This document shows positions 2,170-50,543 of a stretch of DNA of 62,546 nt, one piece after another; the first letter of the stretch is position 1, and each line of letters opens with the position of its first letter. The stretch is from a virus (taxonomy: Duplodnaviria > Caudoviricetes), in the IMG/VR virus record IMGVR_UViG_3300025013_000127, positions 1 through 62,546 of that record; one strand, given 5' to 3'. The translations under genes and the position numbers were made by a program. The notes under the pieces were generated by a model, which worked only from the letters and a program-made list of their open reading frames with translations, made no database searches and had not been told where the DNA came from.

Positions 2170-2239
2170 GGAGTGGATGGGGCCGGGTATTAATATATTG
2201 AGAACTTTGCCAGCCCTTATACTGGACGGACTTTAGAGA

Positions 2240-2291
2240 TCCCAACCAGGAAGTTAGACCGGCCTCGCCGGTCAACTTCCGGCCGTTATGC
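2240..2291 (+). repeat. attC 1 (52 bp)
   Basis: TCCCAAC...GGAAGTT(A)GACCGG-cctcg-CCGGTCAACTTCC...GTTATGC; hairpin with one extrahelical base. Confidence 0.85.
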
Positions 2292-2308
2292 AGAATGGAA
2301 GGATGATT

Positions 2309-3094
2309 ATGAGTCTTGGATACGTGATTGCTTTACTCGGTGGATGGTCGGTTATTGCTATCGCTATAGTAACTTTTATCGGGAAACTCGCAAATGAAAA
2401 GGTGCTTTCGAATTGGCGAAGGGCTGAACAAAAAGAACTGGAACAGGTCAGACACGGGCTGCAAGAGAACCGGACATTGCTTGATAAAAGCCTGGCTAGT
2501 CTGACTAGCGGGCAAGATAAACTATATGAACGTCGGGCTGATGCTGCTGACAGGCTATGGGCAGCCGTACTCGAGTTGCGTGAGGACCTTTCAGGGCCTC
2601 CATTCTTCTACAGCATTTTACTTCCTGATGAGTACATGGATGTCCTGGAGAAAGGGAATGCAATTGCTGCATCGGTGTCATCGCTTACCGACCGCCACAT
2701 CATGGAGGCAATCGAGAAAACAAAGAAGATTGAAGCAGATAGACCATATTTAGGCGAAATGTTGTGGCTCCGATTTTTCATTTATCGCGCTTTCCTAAGC
2801 CGTGTGGCTCACTTAATAGTCGATGGAAAAGAGAAAGGTAAAATCATAAGCTGGCGAGAAGATTCAGGGATTCAGCAAATTCTTAGGAATGTCATTGAGA
2901 TAGAGCCGCTAACGAAAGTTCTTGGTGACAAGCCAAACCCATTCTCAATAAATATGATCATCCAAGAAATCGAAAATCAGATATTAAAAGAGATTTCACT
3001 CTCATTGACAGGGAAGCGATCAACACTTGAGAGCCTGGAAATTGCGAAGGACCTTCAAACGGCGGTAGCGGGGCTCAACCCTTTCGGAGCATAA
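2309..3094 (+). CDS. Cassette 2: hypothetical protein with N-terminal TM helix and coiled coil
   Basis: Open ORF. Its stop overlaps R'' GCATAAC, the exact complement of the cassette start GTTATGC. Confidence 0.8.
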   Translation: MSLGYVIALLGGWSVIAIAIVTFIGKLANEKVLSNWRRAEQKELEQVRHGLQENRTLLDKSLASLTSGQDKLYERRADAADRLWAAVLELREDLSGPPFFYSILLPDEYMDVLEKGNAIAASVSSLTDRHIMEAIEKTKKIEADRPYLGEMLWLRFFIYRAFLSRVAHLIVDGKEKGKIISWREDSGIQQILRNVIEIEPLTKVLGDKPNPFSINMIIQEIENQILKEISLSLTGKRSTLESLEIAKDLQTAVAGLNPFGA

Positions 3095-3156
3095 CTACCG
3101 CCACGACCTGGCCGCCCAAACTGCGGGGCGGCAGGTCAGGCGGGCGCCCGTTGGAA
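3089..3156 (+). repeat. attC 2 (68 bp)
   Basis: GCATAAC...GACCTG(G)CCGCCC-loop-GGGCGGCAGGTCA...GTTGGAA. Confidence 0.85.
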
Positions 3157-3197
3157 AAAACGGACGACAAAGTCGTGAACTGGTTTGGGAGTTCGAA

Positions 3198-3515
3198 TTG
3201 AGACAAAAGTTTCTGACGAGTATCTTCTTCATCTTATTGATCGTTTCGGTTGTCACTGTCACTAAAGCTGTACTAACCGCTTTTGACATTTACTCATCGA
3301 CAACGTACTCCATTACGTATTTTGCTTTCTTTGGGTGTGCCTTCATTTTCACTAAATATGTGTACCCTAATATGTTCAGGAGAAATCAGTATTTCGCGCT
3401 AATTATTTCAGCTGTTGCAAGTGGTTTATCAATCTGGTGGCTACTGAAAGGGCGCGGGGGGCAGGTCTTGGGAAATCACTTTTTCCGGTTGATCACTTTG
3501 CTGATGGTTGTGTAA
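3198..3515 (+). CDS. Cassette 3: small membrane protein, C-terminus probably derived from an inserted element
   Basis: Three hydrophobic segments, then runs into GGGGGGCAGGTCTTG at 3456. Confidence 0.55.
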   Translation: MRQKFLTSIFFILLIVSVVTVTKAVLTAFDIYSSTTYSITYFAFFGCAFIFTKYVYPNMFRRNQYFALIISAVASGLSIWWLLKGRGGQVLGNHFFRLITLLMVV

Positions 3516-3669
3516 TGCAGGTCAAGAGTTACTGCAATGTCCTTCAGCGAGTAGCCATATTTTATATGTGTTGTTTGAATAATTTGATCCCTCTGCAGCT
3601 TTTCCCTTCCACTCTGCGGTAAAAGCTCGACCAGTGAGGGGCGACGTTCGAGGGGGACAGGCACCATTT
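3456..3669 (-). mobile_element. Remnant of a REP-associated tyrosine (Y1/RAYT-like) transposase element: C-terminal HTH with G-run end motifs
   Basis: The minus-strand peptide ...RPSLVELL...HIKYGYSLKDIAVTLDLHYTTISKVI resembles the C-terminal HTH of long RAYT proteins. It is bracketed by GGGGGGCAGGTCTTG and GGGGGACAGGCACC. Confidence 0.6.
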
Positions 3670-3746
3670 AATATACGGTAGGTCCACCTAAATGGTAAGG
3701 ACCGCGGATGGGACCGGGTATTTATATATTGATAACTCGACGGAGG

Positions 3747-3798
3747 TCCCAACCAGCGGCAGGACCGGCCATCGCCGGTCAGCCTTGAGACGTTGGTC
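3747..3798 (+). repeat. attC 3 (52 bp)
   Basis: TCCCAAC...GGCAGGACCGG-ccatcg-CCGGTCAGCC...GTTGGTC. Confidence 0.8.
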
Positions 3799-3892
3799 GC
3801 GACACGATGTCGCGTGATTATATGTTCTTGATATCAATAATGTTTCACGGATAACAAGAACCTGAAGTATCCCCTTCAGCGCCCTAAGCGGC

Positions 3893-6077
3893 GTGCTGGG
3901 TACGCGCTGTGTACTTGGTACGAAGCCCGCTGACAATGTACCGAATTGGGTTCGAATGGCGACAGGAGAACCCCTCCGGATAACTCCATCCGGTTAAGGG
4001 CTAGGGCTGGGCAATATGGTGAAATTAGATGAATGGTCGTTGACGCGCCGTCAGAAGGGAACCACCCTACCGGAGTCAACAGGGTGTAGGCATGTTTCCA
4101 AGTGCTTACATGCGTGGACAGGCTGCAAGTCGCCAACATGCTTGCACGGGATCGTTGAGCCACCGGCGTTCAGACCGCACCTAAGTTGTCCGTCAAGTTA
4201 ATCACGCGGAACGTGGAAATGTCGCCACTCCGCCCTGTCTCGCGATGCAGGGCAAGCCGACCGTAAGGCAGGCAGATGGAGGGGCGAAATTGAGAGGTCG
4301 GAAAAAGCGAATGCCATTTCTGTAACGGGATGGATAGAGCATGAAACATGGCTTAGCGCGAAAACCGGGGAACGTCCTTCCACAACCCCGGCGAAACGGC
4401 GCGCCCACGTCCGACTGGTGTTCCGTTGCGAGATCATTTGGAGAACCTCTGAAGATGGGAAAGCAAATGGCGGCTTCGGCCGGTGCGCCCAGAGACAAGA
4501 CCGGATCATGGGGCAAGATCGATTGGATCAAGGCCCGCCGGGAAGTCAGGAGGCTGCAAATCCGTATCGCGAAGGCTGTGAAGGAAGAAAGGTGGAACAA
4601 GGTGAAGTCCTTGCAACACCTGCTGACCCACTCGTTCCACGCCAAGCTCTTGGCTGTCAAACGAGTGACCTCGAACAAAGGCAAGAAAACCCCTGGCGTC
4701 GACGGTGTTCTCTGGAAGACCGCCAAGGCCAGATGGCTGGCTGTTCGCAGCCTGCGCCGACGTGGCTACCGGCCGCAACCGCTGAAAAGGATTTACATTC
4801 CGAAGAAGAATGGACGGAAAAGACCGCTTTCGATTCCCGCGATGTCTGATCGGGCAATGCAGGCGCTGTACAAGCTGGCACTGACACCGGTGGCGGAGAC
4901 CATGGCCGACGGCAACTCCTACGGGTTCCGGGAAGGCCGCAGATGCGCCGACGCTACCGCGGCAGCTTTCAACGCACTGGGCAAACCGAACTCCGCACCG
5001 TGGGTTCTGGAAGCGGATATTGCGGGTTGTTACGACAACATCTGTCAGAACTGGTTGTTGACAAACATCCCAATGGACCGCGAAATTCTTCGCAAGTGGC
5101 TTGAGGCGGGGTATATCGAAGATGGCATCCTATACCCCTCGCACAAAGGAACTCCGCAAGGTGGGATTATCAGCCCCACGCTCGCGAACATGACACTCGA
5201 CGGATTGGAGCGGGTCATCCGCAATGCAGTCCCCCGGCGGTGTCGTATCAACTTCATTCGCTACGCTGACGACTTCATAGTGACGGGCAAATCACGCCGT
5301 CTCCTGGAAAAGTCCATCAGACCGGCGGTTGAAAGGTTCCTGGCCGATCGCGGGCTCCAGCTAGCACCGGAGAAGACCGCAATCACGCACATAAAGCACG
5401 GCTTCACGTTCCTCGGGCAAACCTATCGCAAGACCGGCAATGTACTGCACATCACCCCGGCCAAGGAGGGAGTCCTCGCCCTCAAACGAAAGGTGGGAAC
5501 GTTAATCCGCAAATACGTCAGCGCGCCATTGCCGATCCTTGTCAGGAAGCTGAACCAAACGCTTCGCGGCTGGGGGAACTACCACCGCCATGTGGTGGCA
5601 GGGGAGACTTTTGTAATTGTCGACAAGTATGTCAAGGAACAACTCAGGCGCATGGTGTACCGCAGACACCAAGGAAAGTCCCGGAGATGGCTGGATCGCC
5701 AATATTGGCGGGTTCCCGGACACGAACGGGCGTTTACGGTCGCCTCTAAAACCGCCAAGGGGGAACTACGCAATTATGAGGTATTCCGCCTCAAGTCCCT
5801 GAGCATACGACGACACGTCAAGATCAAGGCCGACGCCAACCCCTACGTGAAGGAAGAGGGGAGGTACTTTGCACGGCGCAAGCTCAACAAAGAATCTATG
5901 GGCGTAGTGGGCAATTCAGCCCGCGAGCGCAAGGCCATGGTCGCCGACAAAAGAGGTAACAGAGCCGGGGCGTCCAACAAGGGCGTCCTTTGAGAATGCC
6001 TGAGCCGGATGAAGCGAAAGTTTCAAGTCCGGTTCTTAGGGGGGGGCGGGAGCCGCAAGGCTCCCCTCCTACCCGGT
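3893..6077 (+). mobile_element. Group II intron (chloroplast-like class, no endonuclease domain)
   Basis: 5' GTGCTG; domain V GAGCCGGATGAAGCGAAAGTTTCAAGTCCGGTTC at 6002; domain VI with bulged A at 6071; ends ACCCGGT. The 5' boundary is less certain than the 3' boundary. Confidence 0.85.
4467..5993 (+). CDS. ltrA: Group II intron reverse transcriptase/maturase
   Basis: RVT_N-type N-terminus (VRRLQIRIAKA), TPGVDG, SYGFR, GTPQGGIISPTLAN, YADD, and X domain (LNQTLRGWGNY); no HNH domain. Confidence 0.95.
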   Translation: MAASAGAPRDKTGSWGKIDWIKARREVRRLQIRIAKAVKEERWNKVKSLQHLLTHSFHAKLLAVKRVTSNKGKKTPGVDGVLWKTAKARWLAVRSLRRRGYRPQPLKRIYIPKKNGRKRPLSIPAMSDRAMQALYKLALTPVAETMADGNSYGFREGRRCADATAAAFNALGKPNSAPWVLEADIAGCYDNICQNWLLTNIPMDREILRKWLEAGYIEDGILYPSHKGTPQGGIISPTLANMTLDGLERVIRNAVPRRCRINFIRYADDFIVTGKSRRLLEKSIRPAVERFLADRGLQLAPEKTAITHIKHGFTFLGQTYRKTGNVLHITPAKEGVLALKRKVGTLIRKYVSAPLPILVRKLNQTLRGWGNYHRHVVAGETFVIVDKYVKEQLRRMVYRRHQGKSRRWLDRQYWRVPGHERAFTVASKTAKGELRNYEVFRLKSLSIRRHVKIKADANPYVKEEGRYFARRKLNKESMGVVGNSARERKAMVADKRGNRAGASNKGVL

Positions 6078-6905: not shown

Positions 6906-6991
6906 GGCATAAAGGGGACGTTCCGTTTTCTCTTAAGTGGTTACAAAGAGGACAACGGAGACGTTGAGTCAGAAAATTTGAGGGAGCGTGA

Positions 6992-7043
6992 TCCTAACAA
7001 GGAAGTTTGACCGGCCACGAGTCGGTCAACTCCCGGGTTGGGC
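6992..7043 (+). repeat. attC 4 (52 bp)
   Basis: TCCTAAC...GGAAGTTTGACCGG-ccacgag-TCGGTCAACTCCC...GTTGGGC. Confidence 0.85.
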
Positions 7044-8565: not shown

Positions 8566-8606
8566 ACAAGGGGGGTGGGATAACTAACTCCTCAGAATCT
8601 TGATAA
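8566..8606 (+). repeat. Left terminal inverted repeat of the prophage
   Basis: ACAAGGGGGGTGGGATAAC...TGATAA; the first 19 nt match the reverse complement of the right end at 16 positions. Confidence 0.8.
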
Positions 8607-8725
8607 ACGTGTTTGGGGGTTCTTGGCAGATGCTTTACACTGGGGGCAAATCGACCACGCATCAAGAAAATGTTGATGGCGTTCGACCGTTGAAAATTTA
8701 TTGATTTCCGGGTACCGGGGAGGCG

Positions 8726-9052
8726 CTAGCCTCCTTTTCTTTTATCGGCGAGGTCGGGGGGTTGGGTGAGCGCTTCTGATGAACCGAAAACGAGCTTTGC
8801 GGTGGACGGGGGAGCCGCGGACTCAGCCCCCCAGTACTTAAGTATGATATCCATGGCACAGGCGGCGGCCGTGGGGGAGAAGTAGAGGTTTACTGTTTGG
8901 TCGTTGACGGGCGAAGAGTAGACAGCCCGTGACGGATCGGCGTCGAGAAGTCGGAAAAGGTCTTGGATCTCGCCAACCAGACGATCGGCCTTGCCTCTCA
9001 ATTGATCATCTCGCGTAATCCTTATGCTGTACCAGTTCATCGTTTCCATCAC
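8726..9052 (-). CDS. Hypothetical protein (prophage left-end accessory gene)
   Basis: 108-aa ORF abutting the upstream gene. Confidence 0.65.
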   Translation of the reverse strand: MMETMNWYSIRITRDDQLRGKADRLVGEIQDLFRLLDADPSRAVYSSPVNDQTVNLYFSPTAAACAMDIILKYWGAESAAPPSTAKLVFGSSEALTQPPDLADKRKGG

Positions 9053-9637
9053 CTACTCTCCCCAGGCAATTACACGGCCTTTTTTTACATAGAGCCAGAG
9101 GCCGCCTCTTCCGTACTGGTCGACTATGCCGTTTTTTGTTTTAACCTGGCCACGGAGAAAGACCTCGCCATAGCATTGTTGTACCCGCGACAGCTTCATC
9201 CCCACTTTTATATTTTGATAATCATCCCCGCAGACATCGTTCATATATCGTTCACTTTTTACTATCGAGCCCTCTATAAACCCATCCATGTATTCAGAAA
9301 AAAGGAGGGGGTCTGGTAGATGGTTGTAACAATTTACCAGTGGCGCATAAGCCGCTATGGCTTCAGATGTTTTGCCGGGCGCTGACACAAGTGAGCGGAA
9401 CGACTCTAGCGCTTCGAAATAGGATATAACGTCATTAATATCCGCATCCCGTTGCCAGTTACTGCCAGGTAGCGAGTTGACTAGCTTTTTGGCATTATCA
9501 AAGTCCTTGGCTAAAATTTTAGCTTCGATTTCAGCCATCAATGCCCCGCTGGGCGTGTCCATTGTCGCTGCGTCTGAATGAGCGATGGCAGGCAGGAATA
9601 GCATCAGAAAACATGTTACCAATATAAAACCTTTCAT
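9053..9637 (-). CDS. Exported protein, candidate moron
   Basis: Signal peptide MKGFILVTCFLMLFLPAIAHS; C-terminal IKVGM...LYVKKGRV segment resembling SmpA/BLIP folds; GGGAGGGA RBS. Confidence 0.7.
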   Translation of the reverse strand: MKGFILVTCFLMLFLPAIAHSDAATMDTPSGALMAEIEAKILAKDFDNAKKLVNSLPGSNWQRDADINDVISYFEALESFRSLVSAPGKTSEAIAAYAPLVNCYNHLPDPLLFSEYMDGFIEGSIVKSERYMNDVCGDDYQNIKVGMKLSRVQQCYGEVFLRGQVKTKNGIVDQYGRGGLWLYVKKGRVIAWGE

Positions 9638-9667
9638 GTCTGTCCCTCCCCTGTAGATCTTTGATGG

Positions 9668-10240
9668 CTATTGCTGGAACACCTTCCATGACATAGTGCG
9701 CTTCCTTGTGAGCTCGATGAATGCGATCGGATTTTGGGCTACGCAGGCTAGGAAGGAAAAGAACCATTTCGGCTGCTGGCGAAGCAGTTCTAGGGCTGTT
9801 GGGCCGCTAAGCTGGCTGTAAGCTACCAGCGCCAGGATTATCAGGGTCGGGAATATCATTAAGGTTACCAGGTTGATCGCGACCCAGCCAGCCTCTTTAT
9901 CTAAAACCAGCCTTTTTAGCCGTCCTAGCAGTTTCTTTTCCTCAGTGTATTTTAGAACCTCTCTCTGTGTCTCCTCATCCATGTCTTCAAGCACCTGGTC
10001 GATCAGTTTCACGACAGGGCTCGCCTTCCTCTTTTCTGTTAGCTCCTCGCCTGTTAGTAGCCAATCTAAGTTCACTCTTTCGTTTATTGCCCATTCAACG
10101 ACCACGGGCAAAAGGGTGCCTCTCTTCTTTCGGTTGCTGAAGTCTTGAGGCGAGATTCCAAGGGTTTTAGCAACATCCTTTTCGCTTCTCAGGCCCTTGA
10201 GTTTCATGATTTTATCTACCACTAAAACAAAGTTCACCAT
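9668..10240 (-). CDS. Phage CI-like HTH repressor with C-terminal hydrophobic extension
   Basis: KDVAKTLGISPQDFSNRKKRG...VNLDWLLTGE; divergent from ner. Confidence 0.85.
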   Translation of the reverse strand: MVNFVLVVDKIMKLKGLRSEKDVAKTLGISPQDFSNRKKRGTLLPVVVEWAINERVNLDWLLTGEELTEKRKASPVVKLIDQVLEDMDEETQREVLKYTEEKKLLGRLKRLVLDKEAGWVAINLVTLMIFPTLIILALVAYSQLSGPTALELLRQQPKWFFSFLACVAQNPIAFIELTRKRTMSWKVFQQ

Positions 10241-10255
10241 TCGTGTATTTTTCTC

Positions 10256-10283
10256 TTGATTAAATAAACGATTCGTTTATTAT
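10256..10283 (+). promoter_or_regulatory. Putative early promoter with palindromic operator
   Basis: TTGATT-16 nt-TATTAT, overlapping the perfect palindrome AATAAACGA-T-TCGTTTATT (10263-10281). Confidence 0.65.
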
Positions 10284-10516
10284 CGCGTTTATAAGTTTTA
10301 CTTCTAAGTTTCGGAAAGTCAAAAAAAGAAGATCAATCCTGGTCGGCGTCCTTGCAAGAGGAGTCGGCGAACTCGGGAAGACAATCGGTGACAGGCGGCT
10401 TCTTTGGCTTTCGATATTTTTTGATTAAAAATTTGGCAAGCAAGAACGTCCCAGTGACAGTGCCGGCACCAAGCGTTTCCCAAGCGGCTTCAGTAAAGCT
10501 TTTAGGAGGAAAGTTC

Positions 10517-10732
10517 ATGTCAAACCTCGTGAGAAATGTATTGCGATTAGTATTGGCGGCTATCGTGGGTAGTTTTTTGTGGGCCGCCATACTAATTGTC
10601 TGTGGCATTAACCGCTCATACGAACATTGGTGGCAGGATTTGATTGCCTTTATGGGTCCCTACTTCTACATGAAATCTCTGGAAAAGATTGCCGAACCAA
10701 TAGTTAAAGAAGCAGAAAAGGAGCTGTTATGA
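10517..10732 (+). CDS. Small membrane protein
   Basis: AGGAGG RBS; TM helix; stop overlaps the ner start. Confidence 0.65.
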   Translation: MSNLVRNVLRLVLAAIVGSFLWAAILIVCGINRSYEHWWQDLIAFMGPYFYMKSLEKIAEPIVKEAEKELL

Positions 10733-11037
10733 GTGCAAATCACAAGGCCCGTGCTGACTGGCATCCGGCTGACATCAAGGCTGCGCTGGCTAAGAAGGGG
10801 TACACCTTTGCCAGGGTTGCCCGAGAAAACGGGTATGTCCGGAACGCCCCTAACTCCGTACTGCATAAGCCCTGGTCACAGATTGAGCGGATAGTGGCCG
10901 AGATCATTGGGGTGCGTGCTGCCGAGATCTGGCCCAGCCGCTACGATCGGCGCGGCCGGCCGCTTAGGGAGCGGACTGCTAGGGTGACATGTAAGGACGG
11001 CAGGTTAGCAGAGATGAAGGTTGTTCGCAACGGCTAA
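10729..11037 (+). CDS. ner: Ner-family transcriptional regulator
   Basis: DWHPADIKAAL...EIWPSRY. Confidence 0.92.
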   Translation: MSANHKARADWHPADIKAALAKKGYTFARVARENGYVRNAPNSVLHKPWSQIERIVAEIIGVRAAEIWPSRYDRRGRPLRERTARVTCKDGRLAEMKVVRNG

Positions 11038-11057
11038 ATAGCTAATGGAGGCAGGTT

Positions 11058-11249
11058 ATGAGTGCGAAAGAGCTGGCGGAACGGGAGCAGGCGGTGCGGT
11101 ACGGTATTGAGTCGTTGTCGAAGAACTTCTGTATGCAGAAATGGTATGCCTTGCTGGCGCTGCGCACTGTTTGTTTCCACTTGGGCCTGGTCGAACTCCA
11201 CGCGGAGATCAACGTATTACTGAAAGACTCGTTGGAGGTGCCTAAATGA
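11058..11249 (+). CDS. Hypothetical protein
   Basis: GGAGG RBS; overlaps the next start. Confidence 0.55.
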   Translation: MSAKELAEREQAVRYGIESLSKNFCMQKWYALLALRTVCFHLGLVELHAEINVLLKDSLEVPK

Positions 11250-41517: not shown

Positions 41518-41538
41518 CGGCTATCGGGGAAGGTTGCA

Positions 41539-43656
41539 ATGGAATCGCTTTTCAAGCTGGGCATATTGATGCGGCTGTCCGATATGGTTTCCGGCCCGGC
41601 CACCAGAATTGGGAGCTCGCTCGCAGATCTGAGGACCAGGGCGGAGGCGATGGAGCCGATCTTCGAGAAATTCAAAAGTGTCGGCGTGCCCCTTGTTGCT
41701 GCCGGTGCGCTTATGCTCGGCGTGCTGACAGGAACGGTTATGGCTACCGCCGAAACACAGAAGGCTCTTGGCGAGTTGGCCTCGGTTGGCATAAGGGATA
41801 TGGCTGCGCTCGAGCGCGCCGGTACGGACTTCAGTAATCGCTGGTCCGGCACCACCAAGGCGCAATTCATCGCCGCGGCTTACGACATCAAGAGCGGGAT
41901 ATCTTCTCTTACCGATACCGGCGTGGCCGAGTTCACCAAGCTAGCGGCCTTGACCGGCAAGGCTACCAAGAGCACCACGGCGGAGATGACCAGTCTCTTC
42001 GCCACTGCCTACGGTATCTACAAAAGCCAGTACGATGGGCTTAGCGACATCCAGTTCGGGAATGTTTTTTCCGGCGGCATTGCCGCTTCGGTAAGGGCTT
42101 TCAAAACCACGGGCGGCGGCATGGCCCAGGCGATCTCCACCCTGGGCGCCACTGCCGCCACCGCCAAAGTGCCCATGCAGGAGCAGCTCGCCATAGTCGG
42201 GATGCTGCAGTCGACAATGGCCGGCGGTGAGGCGGGCACCAAATACAAGGCTTTCATGCAGGCGGCGGCCGGCGCCGGTCAAAATCTGAAGATTTCGCTG
42301 CTTGACACGAACAACCAGTTGCTGTCGATGCCGGAAATACTGACCAAATTGAGAGGCCGCTTCGGTGACACTCTTGACGCTGTGGAGAAAATGCAGATCC
42401 AGAAAGCTTTCGGCACTCAGGAGGCGGTCGCGGTCATCGACCTTTTGTACAACAAGGTTGGAGATCTGACCGGCAATATCAAGATTGTTTCGGATGCGAT
42501 GAGCCAGGGCACTATCTATACGGAGCAGATGGCCAATGCGATGAACCAGGACATCGGAGCAGGGATAGGGTTGCTGCGCCAGCGCATGCACAATCTGGCT
42601 GAGACACTCGGCAATCGACTGATCCCCATTCTGGCGCCGATGTTTGCTTTTGTGCTCAATATCGTGCTGGCTTTACAGCGGTTCGCCGAGAAGCACGATA
42701 CGTTGACCCGGGTGGTCATGGTGAGTTTGGCTGTCATCGCCGGGCTGGCATTCGCTCTGGGTGGAGTGGCGACGGTCATCGGTGTGATCGGTCTGGGCTA
42801 TCCCGCGGTGGTGACGGGCATCGGCCTGATCACCGGGGCTTTCAATATAGCCACAGCGGCCACATGGAGATTCACCGCGGCGCTGTTGACGAATCCTGTC
42901 ACAGGGATCGTGGTCGCGATTGTCGCCGCTGCCATGCTGGCCGGCAAGGCGTTTTTGTGGATGTACGGCAATGTCACCTGGTATAAGGCGGCGGTTGACG
43001 GGCTGCTTTACGGGTTGGGCTTTGGATTGGGCCGGATGGTCAAATGGCTGGGACAGATGGCGGGAGTGGTTGCCGCTCCTTTCCGGGCTGTATGGTCCAT
43101 TTTTTCCCAACTGATCGCGGCTCTTCCGCAGATTGAGGTGGCTGTTTCCACAGCCATGGTGGGCATGCTTAGCGCGTTTCCAACCATATTGAAGGGCATG
43201 TGGAACTCTGGCCGCTCGATAATCTCCACGCTGGTCTCCGGGATCAAGTCCAGGGCGTCCGGGCCGGTGGATGCCGTTAAGGAAATCTTTAGCAAGGTGC
43301 GCAACCTGCTTCCTTTTTCGGATGCCAAGGAGGGGCCGCTGTCTCAGTTGACGCTCTCCGGTTCGCGCATCATGTCCACCCTGGGGGAAGGCATCGCAGG
43401 CGGAGCCGCGGGGTTGCATAGGACTATGGCTGCGGCGCTGGCCGGGGCTGCACTGACTACCTCGATCGCCGTGGCGGCTCCTTCGGGGAGCGCTAAGGCT
43501 GCTCTTGGTGGCGCGGCAAGGGCGGAGAAGTCAGCGACCGTGCAGGGGAAATCTTTTGCTATCCACATCGAACGGCTGGAACTCCCGGGGGTGAGTAACG
43601 GGGCGGACTTCGTTAAGCAGTTGCAGGCTATGGTGGAGGCTTTTGATGCAGAATAA
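41539..43656 (+). CDS. Tape measure protein
   Basis: AAAYDIKSG, GGEAGT, FGTQEA; PFSDAKEGPLS. Confidence 0.92.
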   Translation: MESLFKLGILMRLSDMVSGPATRIGSSLADLRTRAEAMEPIFEKFKSVGVPLVAAGALMLGVLTGTVMATAETQKALGELASVGIRDMAALERAGTDFSNRWSGTTKAQFIAAAYDIKSGISSLTDTGVAEFTKLAALTGKATKSTTAEMTSLFATAYGIYKSQYDGLSDIQFGNVFSGGIAASVRAFKTTGGGMAQAISTLGATAATAKVPMQEQLAIVGMLQSTMAGGEAGTKYKAFMQAAAGAGQNLKISLLDTNNQLLSMPEILTKLRGRFGDTLDAVEKMQIQKAFGTQEAVAVIDLLYNKVGDLTGNIKIVSDAMSQGTIYTEQMANAMNQDIGAGIGLLRQRMHNLAETLGNRLIPILAPMFAFVLNIVLALQRFAEKHDTLTRVVMVSLAVIAGLAFALGGVATVIGVIGLGYPAVVTGIGLITGAFNIATAATWRFTAALLTNPVTGIVVAIVAAAMLAGKAFLWMYGNVTWYKAAVDGLLYGLGFGLGRMVKWLGQMAGVVAAPFRAVWSIFSQLIAALPQIEVAVSTAMVGMLSAFPTILKGMWNSGRSIISTLVSGIKSRASGPVDAVKEIFSKVRNLLPFSDAKEGPLSQLTLSGSRIMSTLGEGIAGGAAGLHRTMAAALAGAALTTSIAVAAPSGSAKAALGGAARAEKSATVQGKSFAIHIERLELPGVSNGADFVKQLQAMVEAFDAE

Positions 43657-44212
43657 CCTGCTTACTTGGGCGGATGGCGAGGTGAAGCTGGGGGGCGAGT
43701 TGCTCCCCGGTATATTCCTGGACCAGAGCGTCCGCGGTTCGGTGCGGTTCGACCAGTCGGAAAAAGATGCGCAATCGGGTAAGCACAAGGTGCCGCTGGG
43801 GTATCAGGATGCGGACATCTCGATTACGCTGGAGCTCGTTTGCGATGAGAGCGGCGACTGCTACAGCAAGCTGACCCAGATCAACAAGGTTTTCCGGGCG
43901 GACCAAAAAGCTAACCCTCAGGTTTATTCGGTGGGAAACCGGCACTGTCAAGCGCGGGGAATCCGCAATGTTGTTTTCTCAGGGCTGGATTCGTTCGAGT
44001 CTAGTGAGGAGGATGTGATAACGGCAATACTGTCGTTTGTCGAACATCTGCCGCCGGTGATCAGGCGGGAAAAACAGGTGACCGCCGCCAAGTCGGCGGC
44101 TGCCAAGGCGGGGACGGCGCCGGCTGTGAAGGCTACACCGGCGCCGGCGCCGGCGGTGGTTTCTGATCCGGACAGCCCTTTCATGGCTGGATTTCAGGCG
44201 GGCTCTCAGTAA
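43646..44212 (+). CDS. Tail tube initiator/baseplate protein
   Basis: Position after the tape measure gene. Confidence 0.6.
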   Translation: MQNNLLTWADGEVKLGGELLPGIFLDQSVRGSVRFDQSEKDAQSGKHKVPLGYQDADISITLELVCDESGDCYSKLTQINKVFRADQKANPQVYSVGNRHCQARGIRNVVFSGLDSFESSEEDVITAILSFVEHLPPVIRREKQVTAAKSAAAKAGTAPAVKATPAPAPAVVSDPDSPFMAGFQAGSQ

Positions 44213-45015
44213 TGGATATAAATGGAATTAACCTTGAAATTACGGTGGGCGACCTGGAGGTATATCGCGCGCCTCGCTGGTGGATCGAGTCACTGCGGCA
44301 CCATCCTCTAGGGCGGGCCGGAATCACGCTACCGGACCCGAAGGGGGAACTTTACCAGGCCGTCTCAGCGGGTAATGCTGTGTCGATTAGCGTCGGGTAC
44401 CGGGACCAGGCGCTGTCGACCTGGAGAGGCACGGTGACGGCCCGCTACCCCGGGGAGACTCCCGATCAGCTGGAGATCCGGGCGACAGATGCATCTTTGG
44501 CTCTGTCCCAGCTCGACAGGCGCGTCAAACAGGCATGGGAAAACGAGACTCCGGAGGCGCTGGTGACGTGGGCCATTGGGCAGTGCGGGCTCCCGGTCGG
44601 CCGGGTCGGCTCTACCGGGGTGGTGCTCCCCAGAGTGTCTGCTGCAACCATCCCAGTCTGGCAGCTTGTCCGGCAGGTCAGGCAGACCTGCCAGGACGGG
44701 TTTGGTATGGATATGAGCCGGTGGGCTCTCTGGCTGGGTGCTGCGGGGGTTAACTGGGGCGATTTCGACGAGCCGGGGGAGACGGTGACTATCGCCACGG
44801 GGGACAACCTGATCGACCATGAGCCGAACGACTGGAGGAGCGGCATGGGGCTCATCGAGACCTATCTGCTGGCGGGTCTGAGCCATTCCCGTTTGGTGCG
44901 TCTGCAGGATGATCTACGCGGCATCAATGCAGTACACCGGGCGCTGAGGGTGAGGCACGAAGGGACACCGGAGCGGGTGAGGAGTTATGTCTGGTATGGG
45001 GTGGAGCATGGCTGA
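44212..45015 (+). CDS. Baseplate hub protein
   Basis: ISVGY motif; position. Confidence 0.65.
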   Translation: MDINGINLEITVGDLEVYRAPRWWIESLRHHPLGRAGITLPDPKGELYQAVSAGNAVSISVGYRDQALSTWRGTVTARYPGETPDQLEIRATDASLALSQLDRRVKQAWENETPEALVTWAIGQCGLPVGRVGSTGVVLPRVSAATIPVWQLVRQVRQTCQDGFGMDMSRWALWLGAAGVNWGDFDEPGETVTIATGDNLIDHEPNDWRSGMGLIETYLLAGLSHSRLVRLQDDLRGINAVHRALRVRHEGTPERVRSYVWYGVEHG

Positions 45016-45577
45016 GGTGGACCTTAAAAAGCTGATGCAGCGGGTGGTGGAGTTGGTGATGCCGAACTTACGAGGCTATTACCGAGTGCCGCGCAAGGGC
45101 CGCGTGGTCAAAGCTTACGCCTCCGGAGGGGATTACTGGGCGGACGTGCAACCGCTGAGAAATGACGACAGCGATGACGACAAGGAGCCGGTGATTACCA
45201 GGATCGAGATACCTATCCTGTGGGGCGGGCCGGAGCGCGGCGTGGTCTGTCCGCCGACCGTCGGGACACTGTGCGACATCACCTACTACGATGGGGATCC
45301 GGACTATCCGCGGATCAGCAATTTTCGATGGGCCAAGAATAAGGCGCCGGCCTGCGCAATGGGGGCGTTTGTGATCCAGCAGAGTCCGGATGTCTATTTT
45401 TTGATTACGCCCGGTGGGAAGCTGGAGATCAAGGCCAATACCTCCGAAATGAATATGGTCCAGCTGGACATCATAGCAAACGTGAGTATCACCGGAAACC
45501 TTGATGTGACCGGCAATGTAACGGCCACCGGCACGATTATCGACGCCGCCGGTAACACGAACCATCACTCGCACTGA
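45008..45577 (+). CDS. Baseplate spike (gpV-like)
   Basis: OB-fold with P.VG; beta repeats; terminal HHSH. Confidence 0.85.
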   Translation: MAEVDLKKLMQRVVELVMPNLRGYYRVPRKGRVVKAYASGGDYWADVQPLRNDDSDDDKEPVITRIEIPILWGGPERGVVCPPTVGTLCDITYYDGDPDYPRISNFRWAKNKAPACAMGAFVIQQSPDVYFLITPGGKLEIKANTSEMNMVQLDIIANVSITGNLDVTGNVTATGTIIDAAGNTNHHSH

Positions 45578-45584
45578 GGCAATC

Positions 45585-46022
45585 ATGGATGATGTTTTTG
45601 GGCAGGATATAAAGCTGGGGGATGATGAGACGGCGCTGGTGGCTGCCAATGGCGAGTTGCTGTTGACTGTGGGGGCGGAGACTGGAACCCAGGATATCCG
45701 TTTGAGGCTTTTTACCCGTCTGCATGAGCTGTTCTACGACTTCGATTTCGGGGCCTTGGTGCATGATTGGATTAAGGAGGAGCAGACGATATCCAATTCC
45801 CATGGTTTCGAGGCGGAGGTGGAACAGCGCATCGAGGCGGACCCGCGGGTGGTTATCGGCACTGTCTCTTGTAAGGTTGTCGCCTGGGACAACGGGAAAC
45901 TCACCGCACAGGCGGCGTGGGAATTCATCGATGAGACGCACCCCTTTAACCTGATCATCGCGTTCAATAGCGCGAATAAGGAGCTGGTGATAAAAGATGT
46001 CAATCCAAGACCTGGTCTCTAA
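45585..46022 (+). CDS. Baseplate wedge (gpW/GP46-like)
   Basis: LF...DFG; DPRV. Confidence 0.75.
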   Translation: MDDVFGQDIKLGDDETALVAANGELLLTVGAETGTQDIRLRLFTRLHELFYDFDFGALVHDWIKEEQTISNSHGFEAEVEQRIEADPRVVIGTVSCKVVAWDNGKLTAQAAWEFIDETHPFNLIIAFNSANKELVIKDVNPRPGL

Positions 46023-47169
46023 GTCGCTCGATGCGATCCGCCAAGAGATGTTTGATAACCTGTCGGCAAAACAGGAGGAGTATGTTGCCGCCGGGTGGCT
46101 CCCTATCCGGCTGAACCTGAACAAGGGGGTGGTGCGCGGGCTGATCGAGCTCTGGTGCTGGGGCCTCTGGCAGTTGTACCAGTTTTTGGCGCTGATATTG
46201 AAACAAGCGACGCCGGCGGAGGCGACCGGGGCATGGCTGGATCTCTGGTGTCTTTCGGTCTCAGTGAGCCGCAAAATGGAATCTAAAGCCGCCGGGACTG
46301 TCTATTTTGTGCGTGAGGGGACGGTGGGCAACGTGCGCATTCCAGTGGGGCGCATCGTAAGGACACTGCCGGACGGTACCGGCACCGTTTACCGTTATAC
46401 GACCACTGAGGAGGTGATTCTCCTGGCGGGGACGTCGGAGATCGCTTGTCCTGTGGTCGCGGAGGAATATGGCAGCGCCAGCAACGCGACGGCTGGTCAG
46501 ATCTGCGAGATCGTCACGGTCATCCCCGGCATTGACGGGGTGGAAAATAGGGCCGGGTGGCTGTCATCGGAGGCGACGGATCGTGAGACCGATGAGCCGC
46601 TGCGCAGTCGGTATGTCCTGGCTTGGCAAGGGTTGAGCGGCTGCACCAAATACGCATACGAGTCGTGGGCTATGTCGGTGACCGGAGTGGTGTCGGTCAA
46701 GATCCTCGACCAGCACCCGCGGGGCCAGGGCACGGTGGACGTGGTGGTGGTAGGTGCTGCCGGTATCCCGACCCAGGCGCTGCTGACCGCGGTTGAGGGC
46801 AAGATCCTGGGGACCGGTGCCAATGATGACCTGGCGCCGCTTAATGATGACGTGGAGGTTAAGGCTCCGACTCCGGTTAATATCGCGATTGTGGCCGAGC
46901 TGGTCCTTTTGTATGGCGATCCGGAGACGCTTTTGGCTGAGGCGGAGAACGGCGTACGGGCTCTATTTAATACGTCATCGCTGTATAGCGTCGATCCGTT
47001 GGCTGTGGGGCATGATGGCACGCTGGATCGGATCAGGAAACCGATGATGCTACCAGGGGTCAAGAAGGTCAATATTGCCAGTCCGTTGGCCGATGTGCCG
47101 GTTGCTGCGGACGGCCTGGCTGTGCTGCAGAGCCTAACCCTGACCACATCGTGGGCCACCGAGGAGTAA
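45997..47169 (+). CDS. Baseplate J-like protein
   Basis: ATGAWLD; ETDEPLRSR; RGQGTVDV. Confidence 0.9.
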   Translation: MSIQDLVSKSLDAIRQEMFDNLSAKQEEYVAAGWLPIRLNLNKGVVRGLIELWCWGLWQLYQFLALILKQATPAEATGAWLDLWCLSVSVSRKMESKAAGTVYFVREGTVGNVRIPVGRIVRTLPDGTGTVYRYTTTEEVILLAGTSEIACPVVAEEYGSASNATAGQICEIVTVIPGIDGVENRAGWLSSEATDRETDEPLRSRYVLAWQGLSGCTKYAYESWAMSVTGVVSVKILDQHPRGQGTVDVVVVGAAGIPTQALLTAVEGKILGTGANDDLAPLNDDVEVKAPTPVNIAIVAELVLLYGDPETLLAEAENGVRALFNTSSLYSVDPLAVGHDGTLDRIRKPMMLPGVKKVNIASPLADVPVAADGLAVLQSLTLTTSWATEE

Positions 47170-47172
47170 GAG

Positions 47173-47745
47173 ATGAGCATTTTCACCGACTACTTCAGGG
47201 AGACTTTGCGCTTTCGGCCGGTCCTGGCCGGCGGCCCTCTGGCTATTTTGGCGTATGGCGCGGCGCTGTTGCTCGATGCGGTGCGGGAGGTGATGCTGGT
47301 CTTGCGGGACCAGTTCTTTGCTGAGCGCTGCGAGATCAATCGGCTTTCCAAATTTGCCAAAGCACGCGGCATTACCCGCCACCCGCTTGAGACCACGGAA
47401 GGGTTCCAATCGAGGGTACGGCTGGCGTATTTGTGGCACAAGCGAGGCGGCCGGCCGGAGGGGATGAGTCATATCCTTAACGACTATTTCGGGTTCGGCG
47501 GTGTGGTGGTCGAGAGCCTGAGGAGTGAGGACCCTACGCGGTGGGCCGAGTTCCGTGTCATGGTGCTTTCCCTGGGGACGGCGGAGAGTTTTGATGAAGA
47601 GGCAGTGCGATGGGTTATTAACGAGATCAAGCCGGCGCGGTCCAAGATCGGGGTGATCGCGCCCAATGGGGCGCCGAGGGTGTTCCGGGTCAATAGGGAG
47701 CGCGTGGGCGACAAGCTGCTTTACTGGCCGGTGCCTGTCGATTAG
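47173..47745 (+). CDS. Baseplate/tail protein I-like
   Basis: RWAEF; EIKPARS. Confidence 0.75.
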   Translation: MSIFTDYFRETLRFRPVLAGGPLAILAYGAALLLDAVREVMLVLRDQFFAERCEINRLSKFAKARGITRHPLETTEGFQSRVRLAYLWHKRGGRPEGMSHILNDYFGFGGVVVESLRSEDPTRWAEFRVMVLSLGTAESFDEEAVRWVINEIKPARSKIGVIAPNGAPRVFRVNRERVGDKLLYWPVPVD

Positions 47746-47813
47746 TAGCTGTTGGGGATGATAAGAAAGTCTGGAGACGGTTTGAGAGGGATTGACAGAT
47801 AAATATGGGAGGG

Positions 47814-48926
47814 ATGATGAAGACTGTATTTGATCCGGGTAACGTGGATTTGGGCATCGAAGGCACTCAAGTAACTGCGGATTTTATGAATGGTTTACAG
47901 AATCACCGCCACGACGGAGGTGATGAAGACGGCGGTTTCCCCAGTAACTATGCAGTGGACACTGGCATAGCTAACGCCTATGTCATCACTCTGGCCCCGG
48001 CGTTGACAGCACACGTTCCCGGCATGCCTATACTTTTCAAGGCTTCTGCCTCCAATACTGGTGCTTCCACTATAGAGATCGACGACCTGGCTGCGGTAGC
48101 TATTAAACAGCCCGATGGCGCTGCGCTTGCCAGCGCTCATATCTTGGCGGGGGCTATCTGTGAAATCGTCTATGACGGGGAGAGCTACCAGCTACTCACG
48201 GCGGCTTATAGGTCCACTGTTTATGCCGTGGACACGGGAATTGCTAATGCCCACGTCATCACTTTGCCGGCACCGTTCGCCGCTCATGTCGCCGGGTTGA
48301 AAATTTTGTTCAAGGCACTGTTTGCCAACACGGGACCCGCCACGCTGAACATCAACGGTTTGGGGGCTGTTGCTATCAAGCAGAATAACGGAAAGGTGCT
48401 CTGTGGCGGGCATATCGCGGCAGGGCAGATCTGCGAGATGGTCTACGATGGGGTCAATTACCAGTTCCAGAACCCCAACCTGGTATCACGGGGCTGCCTG
48501 GTGCACCATGTCGGCAATATGACCCTGCAACCCTACGCCTGGACCAAAGTGCAATTCCTGGATGCGAACAAGGCCTATGATACTGATGGCATCCATAGCG
48601 ATGCAAACAATACACGCCTTGTCGTGCCTGGGGGCATAACAAGGATACAGTTGATCGGCCAGTTTAGCTTTTCCATGACCGAGAACGAAACCTTCGCTGT
48701 CACCTTCCACAAGAATGGTTCGGCGGAGGCATATGCCGGGATGCCGATACAGTCGGGCGAACAGGAATCGTCCGGAATCATGGCCAAGTCGGTTAATGCT
48801 ACGTCGCCCGTGCTTGTTGTTGCGCCTGGGGATTACTTTGAAATGGTGATTGCACAGGGTTGTAACGCCGCGCACTCAACCACGGGCGATGTCAGGACTT
48901 GGGCCTGGATGAAGATTATTGATTAG
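47814..48926 (+). CDS. Tail fibre with two tandem ~90-aa domains
   Basis: YAVDTGIANA...NTG..T...YDG twice; C-terminal jelly-roll-like domain. Confidence 0.8.
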   Translation: MMKTVFDPGNVDLGIEGTQVTADFMNGLQNHRHDGGDEDGGFPSNYAVDTGIANAYVITLAPALTAHVPGMPILFKASASNTGASTIEIDDLAAVAIKQPDGAALASAHILAGAICEIVYDGESYQLLTAAYRSTVYAVDTGIANAHVITLPAPFAAHVAGLKILFKALFANTGPATLNINGLGAVAIKQNNGKVLCGGHIAAGQICEMVYDGVNYQFQNPNLVSRGCLVHHVGNMTLQPYAWTKVQFLDANKAYDTDGIHSDANNTRLVVPGGITRIQLIGQFSFSMTENETFAVTFHKNGSAEAYAGMPIQSGEQESSGIMAKSVNATSPVLVVAPGDYFEMVIAQGCNAAHSTTGDVRTWAWMKIID

Positions 48927-49010
48927 GTTGATAGCGAGCGCTGGTGGAATGCTGCTGTGAGATGCGGTGATTGAACGGCTGGATGGCGGATTAACTGATG
49001 GACAAAAGTG

Positions 49011-49044
49011 TTGAGCCATGGCATATGATCTTGCCATGGCTCAA
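49011..49044. repeat. Perfect 13-bp inverted repeat near the prophage right end
   Basis: TTGAGCCATGGCA-tatgatct-TGCCATGGCTCAA. Confidence 0.85.
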
Positions 49045-49082
49045 ACTATTTTTGACGTGCTCAATAGAATGGGCGCGGGGTA

Positions 49083-49123
49083 TTATCACGCTTTTGGGCG
49101 GCTGGTTATCGCACCGCGCTTGT
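49083..49123 (-). repeat. Right terminal inverted repeat of the prophage
   Basis: Reverse complement reads ACAAGCGCGGTGCGATAAC...TGATAA. Confidence 0.8.
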
Positions 49124-49126
49124 GTG

Positions 49127-49413
49127 GCGACGAGCTGCAAGTTCAGCCGCAATCGTTTGTAGTGAGATATACCACGCATTCACGAGACAGCGAAATCCAA
49201 CACCAAGAAGAAACGATCACAGTGGAAGCGGAGACATATTGGAAGCAGTACAACGGTGTCGGCCCTCTTCATCTTCATCCCACCTACCGGTCTCTGCTTC
49301 TTGCGGAAATGGAATTCCTCGATCGGCTGTCCGTCCGAGGACTCGGCGGTCTATACAGATACGAGGTGTTCCACGACGAAATGGGGCGTTGCTCGGAATT
49401 CGTCGTCGACTAA
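49127..49413 (+). pseudogene. Cassette 5 hypothetical protein, 3' part
   Basis: In frame with 7071-8565; followed by attC 5. Confidence 0.75.
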
Positions 49414-49520
49414 CATGATCGGCTACGGTACGTCGGATTGCTAATAAAATCGAAAGAATTCAGAGGAATTCAGAGGGGTCAGCCCCTGACACGAGACAAA
49501 AGCGAAACGGGAAGTGCGAT

Positions 49521-49573
49521 TTCCAACCAAGCAGGAGGACCGGTGAGCCCGGTCACCCGCTGACCCGTTGGTC
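49521..49573 (+). repeat. attC 5 (53 bp)
   Basis: TTCCAAC...GGACCGG-tgagc-CCGGTCA...GTTGGTC. Confidence 0.8.
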
Positions 49574-49627
49574 CAAAAAGGAATGGCAGACTATGACTTC
49601 ATTTCAGATTAGAAAAAAGGAGAGAAA

Positions 49628-50242
49628 ATGCAATTAAAAGACTGGGCTGATATTGCAACAATTGTTGGGTCCACTGCCATTATTGGAGTTCTCGCTCAAG
49701 CCTACTTCATATTCAAACAGATAAAAGCCGACCATGAAAGATCGCGACGGGAGAAGTCGGTAGAATTATTGATAGAGTGGACTAAGCGCTTAGGCGCAGA
49801 TAGCGCATTTGCTAGAAAAGTAGTGGAAAGCTTATCCGAAGAGCAATGTAGAAATCTATACAATAGCGAACCTGTAACTATACCTGCTAAATTCGTGTCA
49901 GACACTAAACATTTCCTAGGTTTAAATATTGATGATACACAGCACGTTAACGGCAGCATAATTATTAGCACCGAGCAAGCTTCAAAACTCAGATGGTGCG
50001 TAACGTCTTACCTGAACATGCTTGAATCTATCCTGGTTGCATGGCAATACAGTGTTGTGGATAGAGTAATAATTGAAAAGGAATTCTCCTATCTGTTCTC
50101 AGTTGAAAAAGGACATGCAGCATTAAAGCATTTCCGTGCTGCTGCTGGCGGTGAAAGTTCATTTCCTGCAATAGAAATATTCGCGAATCACATCAATGAA
50201 GTTCGAAGAAAGTCACTGATTGAAAAATCCAATGTTGCATGA
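49628..50242 (+). CDS. Cassette 6: DUF4760-like protein with N-terminal TM
   Basis: QIKADHERSRRE; YLNMLE; AT-rich; AGGAG RBS. Confidence 0.7.
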   Translation: MQLKDWADIATIVGSTAIIGVLAQAYFIFKQIKADHERSRREKSVELLIEWTKRLGADSAFARKVVESLSEEQCRNLYNSEPVTIPAKFVSDTKHFLGLNIDDTQHVNGSIIISTEQASKLRWCVTSYLNMLESILVAWQYSVVDRVIIEKEFSYLFSVEKGHAALKHFRAAAGGESSFPAIEIFANHINEVRRKSLIEKSNVA

Positions 50243-50494
50243 GTTCAAACTATACATGAGGAAAGTCTCGGGGTCAGGCATGCAATCGTGCAATTGGGAC
50301 AGCCACGGTCCTGAGCAAAGCCATGAGGCTCACAATACAGGCATCACACCGCTTACCAAGAAGTTAGCGAAGAGTACGGAAGCCGGTGTAAGTGGTCGTA
50401 AGGTGATCAAGTTTGCGTAAGTGATCGAAGCAGCGGTATCTAAGCCTGATTGTGCCAAGAAAGTCTGATTGGTGAAGGGTGAAAGCCCATGGAT

Positions 50495-50543
50495 TCCCAA
50501 CAAATCGCCTGGACCGGTCAAGCCGGTCAGGCGAGCGTTAGAG
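50495..50543 (+). repeat. attC 6 (49 bp)
   Basis: TCCCAAC...CGCCTG(G)ACCGG-tcaag-CCGGTCAGGCG...GTTAGAG. Confidence 0.85.

Follow-up and report, generated by a model that had tools for sequence, protein, structure and literature searches.

Debris of TIRYT elements as the probable source of G-run motifs inside the cassettes of an integron

The stretch of DNA analyzed here (termed the window) is a single contig of 62,546 bases, the virus record IMGVR_UViG_3300025013_000127. It carries an integron, represented by half of an integrase gene and by seven attC sites, and between the open reading frames (ORFs) and the attC sites of five of its cassettes lie short G-run motifs. These motifs are probably debris of TIRYT elements (also termed TIRtrons), in which a Y1 transposase gene lies between long terminal inverted repeats (TIRs): a remnant of such a gene adjoins one of the motifs, and three of the motifs match the TIRs that flank full-length relatives of that gene. 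A reading made from the letters of the window alone (termed here the sequence-only reading) had taken the motifs for footprints of a single-strand HUH/Y1 transposase that joins ORFs to non-native attC sites; the analysis supports the link to Y1 elements for part of the motifs and lends no support to the joining.

In the available part of the account by Di Nocera et al. (2013; PMC3733652), TIRYTs are RAYT-like genes (RAYT standing for REP-associated tyrosine transposase, and REP for repetitive extragenic palindromic) placed between long TIRs, many of which share the motif GGGGWSAS, and the TIR repeats occur singly, as dimers or in groups; the available part of Quentin et al. (2018; PMC6006769) assigns TIRYT to TnpA_REP subclass 2.1, which has a C-terminal helix-turn-helix (HTH). 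The window shares with these elements a Y1 gene with a C-terminal HTH, outer TIR ends that fit GGGGWSAS, and single, dimeric or short non-coding units that lie mostly downstream of genes. The dispersal of TIRs is present as well: the motifs that start at 49475 and 50270 resemble TIRs found on full elements, and a 32-nt arm occurs twice in the window and also in other contigs. What differs is that only a 56-codon remnant of the gene is left, that all of the arms are solo and point in the same direction, and that they lie inside cassettes, just upstream of attC sites--a setting that the available parts of these two accounts do not mention. Nor was any paper describing TIRYT repeats inside integron cassettes found among the literature matches listed, judged by title and abstract. 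The motif-bearing sites are thus a known kind of element in a new setting. REP sequences and REPINs with their RAYT (TnpA_REP) genes belong to the same Y1/HUH superfamily and likewise are short non-coding units strewn after genes; the units described here, however, are inverted-repeat arms of 25-32 nt rather than self-folding, GTAG-tagged palindromes, and the gene family has an extra HTH.

The transposase remnant and the solo terminal repeats

The remnant lies at 3479..3643 on the minus strand, where a tblastn comparison aligns it with residues 229-284 of the protein P0001 at 89% identity (E 4e-26), so that the sequence-only reading was right in seeing a RAYT-like HTH remnant here. P0001 (284 amino acids, PF01797) is the one longer relative to which the minus-strand ORF 3476-3667 led, and it passes the NCBIfam model of REP-associated tyrosine transposases, NF047646, with 85.4 bits against a cut-off of 80. 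The part that survives is the C-terminal HTH extension typical of TnpA_REP subclass 2.1, with a weak match to Pfam HTH_38; the catalytic part, with the HUH motif and the catalytic tyrosine, is absent, so that what survives is a remnant rather than a functioning element. A search of all six frames of the window with a family hidden Markov model built from 36 proteins revealed no other Y1 piece, the remnant being the sole match (E 3e-6).

Abutting the stop codon of the remnant, where a cognate TIR would be expected, is the motif at 3456..3480 (+ strand; TIR type A), which appears to be the end that belonged to the decayed Y1 element. The motif reads GGGGGCAG, with one departure from GGGGWSAS, and is identical at 13 of 13 positions to an arm of locus L082; the opposite arm is missing. 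From about 3456 onward the ORF of the third cassette continues into element DNA.

A scan of genome contigs yielded 80 loci with Y1 relatives, which are at most 57% identical (apart from one short fragment at 63%). At 55 of these loci the gene is nearly full length, and 49 of the 55 are flanked by inverted repeats, whereas five are not and one has too short a flank. The outer ends of most flanking repeats read GGGGTCAGG..., and 74 of 80 TIR arms (from 40 loci) anchor on a GGGTCA-type core, with an outer end reading GGGGTCAGG(T/C)C or a close variant; the motifs at 3456, 49475 and 50270 are of this type. A scan of viral_contigs with P0001 returned a single fragment at the end of a contig.

The G-run strings quoted in the sequence-only reading are all present as quoted, namely (by start position) GGATGGGGCCGGGTA at 2175, GGGGGGCAGGTCTTG at 3456, GGGGGACAGGCACC at 3652, GGATGGGACCGGGTA at 3706, GGGGACGTTCC at 6914, GGGGTCAGCCCC at 49475 and GGGGTCAGGCATG at 50270. 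These seven motifs were scored against 98 TIR arms from the 49 loci that have full-length Y1 genes and inverted repeats, with 300 shuffles of each motif. The motif at 50270 scored 18, which none of its 300 shuffles reached, and is identical to the TIR of L058 at 21 of 24 positions; those at 3456 and 49475 each scored 13, which was reached in 1 and in 2 of 300 shuffles, respectively. By comparison, 2 of 300 control 34-mers drawn from 9-48 kb reached a score of 13. When the window is scored with a 14-nt position weight matrix (PWM) of the TIR core, 50270 comes first (15.8 bits) and 3457 third (13.5 bits for the type A arm). The type D arm at 50270..50298 has no Y1 coding remnant beside it. The arm at 49475..49505, which begins with GGGGTCAG..., is about 22/31 identical to a TIR arm of L032 by a hand count, with a PWM score of only 7.3 bits, and directly before it, at 49455..49474, a tandem duplication of GAATTCAGAG can be read in the sequence; all three of these features are on the + strand.

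The presence of a G-run by itself carries no such information. On the + strand there are 438 occurrences of GGGG, or 7 per kb, which gives each ORF-attC spacer a probability of 0.39-0.87 of holding at least one by chance, and GGGGTCAG occurs 4 times against an expected 2.55; counts of either were accordingly rejected as evidence. The published TIRYT motif behaves differently: the ORF-attC spacers, 806 nt in all, contain GGGGWSAS 3 times, against 0.22 expected (P 0.0015), and the motif at 3652..3678 (+ strand; type B) is among the matches to GGGGWSAS, GGGGACAG fitting it. Although the bare G-run is at chance level, the matches of 3456, 49475 and 50270 to TIRs of full-length relatives support the link to Y1 elements: at least three of the motifs, and probably five, are likely to be ends of TIRYT-type elements.

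When scored against shuffles, none of the seven motifs in the window has an inverted partner within 450 nt, so that each of them stands as a solo arm. A reading in which part of the attC serves as the missing right TIR was tried and abandoned, in that no inverted partner was significant relative to shuffles and the shared letters shrink to GGTCA. Solo arms are, moreover, normal for this family, as is indicated by solo TIR copies in other genomes: in five genomes with full elements, a 14-nt TIR pattern has 24 matches, against 0 for the reversed control, and these matches comprise five pairs about 1 kb apart (10), two close inverted dimers (4) and 10 solo copies. Nine of the solo copies were examined, and all nine are situated in ordinary intergenic DNA, two of them next to tRNA genes. 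A separate observation is that the outer ends of TIR arms carry tandem duplications of 10-15 nt at three independent places (at 49455-49474 of the window, at about 1275-1305 of contig L002 and at about 1610-1640 of contig L001, the latter two as reverse complements), which could be due to slippage or be a trace of arm copying.

One 32-nt repeat (type C) accounts for both the motif at 2175 and that at 3706; its two copies (2175..2206 and 3706..3737, both on the + strand) are identical at 29 of 32 positions, the outer end of the first pointing toward its ORF. A single metagenome_contigs scan found the same repeat in two metagenome contigs, L001 and L002, where it bounds, as an inverted pair, a non-coding element of 232 bp and of 244 bp, respectively. 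Copy 1 is 90-91% and copy 2 is 94% identical to the left TIRs of these miniature elements, which are 87% alike yet have unrelated flanks. Contigs of runs X1 and X3 carry the 32-nt motif with other neighbors, and diverge from the window exactly at 3708 and at 3737/3739; these sharp breaks at its ends mark the motif as a dispersed repeat with sharp ends. It has GGATGGGG in common with the TIRs of L020, L014 and L053, and GGGACCNGGT in common with those of L054 and L052, and it is on the strength of this prefix and this core, of the company that the repeat keeps and of its solo-arm behavior that it is considered likely to belong to a Y1 family. Within 8 mismatches, the exact 32-nt motif is absent from the flanks of the 80 Y1 loci, which says little inasmuch as these relatives mostly are no more than 57% identical.

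Contig L001 (3090 bases) also contains a 205-bp mini-element, in which a 34-codon Y1 N-terminus lies between 24-nt TIRs of its own that start with GGGGACG. The likeness of the motif at 6914 to the TIR of the L001 mini-element (15/24 by hand count) was judged too weak to use. The 205-bp element is followed by a stretch homologous to the putative attI region of the window, by a TPR-like ORF, by the 232-bp element and by an IS21-type helper gene; the contig begins and ends with the same 131 bases, a sign that the assembly may be circular or repeat-collapsed. A search for an attC inside the miniature elements with the covariance model described below found none in L001 or L002 other than the known L002 attC, and an alignment of the element's interior to attC sites that had been made by eye was not reproduced by MAFFT.

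The attC sites and their pairing with cassette starts

The features expected of an attC array are present: seven sites, with R''...AAC and GTT...R' boxes, imperfect hairpins with an extrahelical base, one ORF per unit and a single direction. An attC covariance model, trained on six of the window's sites and one from L002, recovers all of its training sites as well as the seventh, left-out site (attC2, E 0.0011), and finds no further attC on the + strand of the window at E <= 0.01. All seven sites are on the + strand. Five form a subfamily, namely attC1 (2240..2291; 67.6 bits; bottom strand -16.2 kcal/mol, z -5.4), attC3 (3747..3798; 65 bits), attC4 (6992..7043; 60.3 bits), the site at 49521..49573, which belongs to a cassette split by a prophage (64.7 bits), and the site at 50495..50543 (64 bits). 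As the sequence-only reading had stated, these five share the core GACCGG-N3-8-YCGGTCA, which occurs 6 times in the window against 0.06 expected; the sixth occurrence is a stray match at 46680, inside the prophage. The two other sites are attC2 (3089..3156), whose R'' box GCATAAC overlaps the stop codon of ORF 2288-3094, and the site at 51346..51397 (53.9 bits), which lacks the GACCGG/YCGGTCA core and whose R'' box CTCTAAC overlaps the stop codon of ORF 50563-51351. The bottom strands of the attC sites fold as bulged hairpins, and for six of the eight sites folded at most 3 of 200 shuffles fold equally well; the weaker folds are those of attC4 (8/200 shuffles) and of the site at 51346 (14/200 shuffles). 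Within the subfamily there are sub-lineages: over 30 nt, attC1 and attC4 are 87% alike, whereas attC3 groups with the L002 attC, to which it is 88% identical over 43 nt. One cassette boundary, at 7037, is confirmed independently by the X8 contig, whose match to the window begins there.

The sequence-only reading had built its model on a contrast in pairing, which exists: the two motif-free cassettes match fully (R''/R' 7/7, with R'' over the stop codon), whereas in the five subfamily cassettes R'' agrees with the R' box at the cassette's own start at only 5, 6, 4, 5 and 5 of 7 positions. Its meaning is another matter. The AAC/GTT core pairs in every cassette, and the mismatches involve 1-3 positions, all of them among the four outer ones, where the attC consensus is only RYYY/RRRY. 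The R'' boxes of the subfamily are nearly invariant (TCCCAAC or one change from it), and they agree with their own starts at 4-6 of 7 positions and with the starts of other cassettes at 4-7 of 7, so that the fit of a box to its own cassette is no worse than its fit to the others.

The association of the motifs with a single attC subfamily has an equally plain explanation. In the two cassettes without a motif, no spacer whatever separates ORF and attC; an attC that overlaps the stop codon leaves no room for an arm, and the motif-bearing cassettes consequently are those that have spacers. Availability of a spacer alone thus accounts for the distribution (five of five versus none of two) that the sequence-only reading had taken as exclusive to one subfamily. 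Outside the window the correlation fails: the attC of L002, which is closely related to attC3, has upstream of it a 60-nt spacer free of GGGG.

The two copies of the 32-nt repeat bear on the same question. Though 91% identical, they lie 33 nt (2175) and 9 nt (3706) before attC sites of different sub-lineages, and their spacers differ; TIR and attC therefore did not move as one unit, and the possibility that they form one mobile module was dropped.

One further likeness between an arm and an attC is treated as due to chance, though without certainty: the 3' half of the attC at 49521-49573 contains GCTGACCC (49552-49566), which is the reverse complement of the outer end of the 49475 arm. As a repeat, 49476-49490 pairs with 49552-49566 (15 nt, 80%), which is not significant relative to shuffles, and the attC at 51346 reads GCCAACCC at the homologous place.

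Origin of the motifs and the explanations weighed

The course of events that best accounts for these observations would begin with one TIRYT element that inserted, reversely oriented, just past the third cassette's ORF. This element would then have lost about 80% of its gene, leaving its right TIR (3456) and its last 56 codons. The motifs at 2175, 3706, 49475 and 50270, and perhaps the one at 3652, would be single TIR arms, strewn across genomes in the way that REP sequences are and presumably copied in trans by the transposase of an intact element elsewhere in the host. They would sit between ORF and attC because this stretch, from the stop codon to R'', is the only dispensable DNA of a cassette, and their presence there would be neutral. 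Strand-specific single-strand transposition is known for IS200/IS605, and the one direction shared by the arms is what such transposition would give within a short region.

Several results weigh against the view that the motifs are TIRYT debris. Four of the seven motifs were not significant in the comparison with the flanks of Y1 genes that the sequence-only reading had proposed: 3652 scored 11 (p about 0.07) and is weak, 2175 also scored 11 (p about 0.09), 3706 scored 10 (p about 0.23), and the G-run at 6914..6937 (+ strand; GGGGACGTTCC...), with a score of 9 (p about 0.53), is unsupported as a TIR. The total number of PWM matches in the window is at chance (3 observed versus 1.15 simulated at 13 bits), and as a genome-wide detector the matrix was therefore set aside, only its ranking of 50270 and 3457 being informative. 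An autonomous element with the 32-nt TIR was found neither in viral_contigs (0) nor among 401 genomes sampled from one phylum (0), and the two metagenome contigs hold the miniature element only. The arms share one direction and all lack a partner, neither of which is predicted by passive decay; three arms (3456, 3652 and 3706) are stacked before attC3; and in at least one more contig, of run X3, an R''-like CCCCAAC follows the 32-nt TIR after about 11 letters, which hints at a real preference for the neighborhood of attC sites. These points notwithstanding, an origin of the motifs as TIRYT debris is considered probable.

One other explanation concerns the 32-nt repeat, which could belong to another transposon family: it would be the terminus of an unrelated miniature transposon that a classical DDE transposase mobilizes, and would lie near Y1 debris by coincidence, in a region where mobile DNA accumulates. 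The repeat does bound its 232-244-bp element as a perfect-length inverted pair, which is the classical form of a miniature inverted-repeat element; its likeness to the TIRs of Y1 genes is not significant; and the window holds another such element (52914-53375) as well as an intron and a prophage. On the other hand, it shares the GGATGGGG prefix and the GGGACCNGGT core with TIRs of Y1 loci, no consistent target duplication was seen by eye at the two full copies, and its solo arms have sharp ends, as TIRYT repeats do. An origin of this kind is regarded as possible, if rather unlikely.

A second explanation accepts that the motifs are Y1 ends and assumes that they were targeted: Y1 elements or TIR units would insert preferentially in the single-stranded DNA just 5' of folded attC hairpins, with cassette arrays serving as their niche, and the order ORF-TIR-attC would then reflect the choice of target and not the places at which insertions can be tolerated. 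Each of the supported arms does point toward an R'' box, from 9 to about 225 nt upstream, and the stacking before attC3 and the CCCCAAC past the 32-nt TIR would be expected if this were so. In addition, in an X3 contig a stretch of the 3652 type is followed by 35 letters that repeat it and then directly by an attC1-like site, and the window, L001 and L002 all combine cassette-like structure with TIR elements. There is also precedent, in that attC sites are known targets of other elements that seek single strands or hairpins, such as the IS1111-attC group. Set against this are the distances between the inner end of the TIR and R'', which vary (roughly 9, 33, 16 and 197 nt) and define no fixed target; the ordinary DNA, in two cases by tRNA genes, in which solo TIRs of the five other genomes lie; the L002 attC, which is close to attC3 and has no TIR upstream; and the full-element loci, only 1 of 80 of which has an attC-like site nearby (L025, E 0.008, with default filters, the reach of the model to foreign attC types being limited). 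Targeting of this kind is judged distinctly unlikely.

Group IIC-attC introns and the IS1111-attC group, which do target attC sites, resemble the window in that mobile DNA is found at or beside the attC sites of a cassette array, but these elements insert at a fixed place within the attC, whereas the TIR arms lie upstream of it at varying distances. Group IIC-attC introns lie on the bottom strand, opposite to the cassettes, and have been proposed to join genes to attC sites (PMC3001079); the intron of the window, in contrast, runs with the cassettes. In Halorhodospira halochloris, an IS200/605 element lies beside a cassette cluster and, as in the window, a Y1-transposase element, a group II intron and attC sites occur together; in the available part of that report the element is a hairpin-ended IS605-type insertion sequence outside the array rather than TIR-type repeats inside cassettes, and the authors only speculate on an interplay of elements that depend on single-stranded DNA (PMC7923331).

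A stronger version of the targeting idea would have TIRYT elements seek the single-stranded DNA beside attC hairpins and TIR-bounded units that enclose an attC, or what is left of one, move; such units could bring recombination sites to new genes and swap the 3' ends of cassettes independently of IntI. An R''-like ATCCAAC lies 28 nt inward of the left TIR in the 232-244-bp element of L001 and L002, with GTTATAG further in, and judging from these letters the element would, on such a view, be a worn TIR-bounded attC unit; the view itself is very improbable.

The model of the sequence-only reading, in which a Y1/HUH transposase cuts and rejoins single strands at the motifs and so fuses ORFs to foreign attC sites, making or deleting cassettes without IntI, draws some support from the identity of motifs as Y1-element ends, from the half integrase gene of the record, from the contrast in R''/R' pairing and from the third cassette's ORF running into element DNA, but is very improbable given that the mismatches are confined to outer positions and that own starts fit as well as others, that nearly identical TIRs precede different attC sub-lineages and spacers, that the motif-free cassettes lack spacers, that solo TIRs lie in ordinary DNA, that a single Y1 locus in 80 has an attC-like site nearby, that no ORF with two different attC sites was found (though none was properly looked for), and that nothing on Y1 transposases acting on attC appeared among the literature matches listed, judged by title and abstract.

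The surrounding integron and its other mobile DNA

The integrase gene is represented by its N-terminal half, at 1..489 on the minus strand, which matches profile positions 16-153 of 315 of TIGR02249 (E 1.1e-39); Pfam recognizes in it the SAM-like domain and, in part, the catalytic domain, of which the beginning is present. The frame is closed by a stop codon that coincides with the first bases of the record. Because the record holds only half of the gene, the score, 136.6 bits, is below the cut-off of 265 bits, and the insertion specific to integron integrases would fall in the half beyond the end of the record. A 217-codon ORF, also on the minus strand (342-995), lies between this fragment and the putative attI and overlaps the start of the integrase gene by 148 nt; it has a weak integrase SAM-like domain of its own (E 3e-9) and no NCBIfam match, and may be a second, decayed integrase fragment. 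The candidate attI crossover heptamer, GTTGGAG at 1237..1243 (+ strand), is taken as the start of cassette 1 from its position and from its likeness to L001, where a AATAACGAGTTG stretch homologous to the putative attI region lies upstream of the first ORF.

Rightward of the integrase, the + strand carries an array of ORFs, each followed by a short hairpin site with ...AAC and GTT... boxes. The cassette ORF at 1357..2169 (+ strand) is of the Abi_alpha family (Pfam PF14337, E 1.6e-56), and the last cassette ORF (51432-51980) has no attC. The array is broken up by three larger elements: a group II intron, a Mu-like prophage and, beyond 51,980, a stretch that contains a DUF6431 ORF.

The group II intron (3799..6077, + strand, its 5' end being approximate) lies directly after the R' box of attC3 and runs in the direction of the cassettes; it is recognized by Rfam RF02012 (3861-4001) and RF00029 (6000-6077), and its reverse transcriptase/maturase ORF spans 4341-5993. 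In the X3 and X4 contigs the intron lies behind other attC-like sequences (with loose ends before 3787 and 3791), which argues that it is multi-copy; it may target attC sites on the top strand.

The Mu-like prophage, of about 40.6 kb (8568..49128, + strand), has a CI-type repressor gene (9668-10240) and an rve-like transposase gene (12337-14067), and is inserted in a cassette ORF, whose two halves (7038-8567 and 49129-49413) join in frame to give 604 codons. The uninterrupted form is seen in the 9.8-kb X8 contig, which follows the window over 7037-8567 and then continues with letters that match 49129 onward, its copy of ORF 7038-8567 being 95% alike. Inspection of the prophage junctions revealed no clear target duplication.

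The DUF6431/HTH ORF (52130-52669) comes after the last cassette ORF, and just behind it, at 52914-53375, is a further miniature element, with 28-nt inverted repeats (79% complementary) around 406 nt without a long ORF. Beyond the array, at 56316-60439, three calcineurin-like phosphoesterase ORFs and one NIF-type phosphatase ORF are clustered; no attC was detected there.

Taken together, these features depict an integron that is sedentary and probably disabled, and in which mobile DNA has accumulated, from TIRYT debris and other miniature elements to a group II intron and a Mu-like prophage. The way in which genes come by their attC sites has long been an open question, and a second enzyme acting at cassette ends would matter if it were real; the evidence from the window points to something more ordinary. 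That evidence has its own consequences, however. The 3' spacers of cassettes in such arrays can consist largely of transposon ends, which may mislead the prediction of attC sites and of cassette boundaries. More generally, TIRYT TIR repeats, hitherto described mostly from complete genomes, are abundant in uncultured bacteria of groundwater and sediment, and here they lie beside attC sites.

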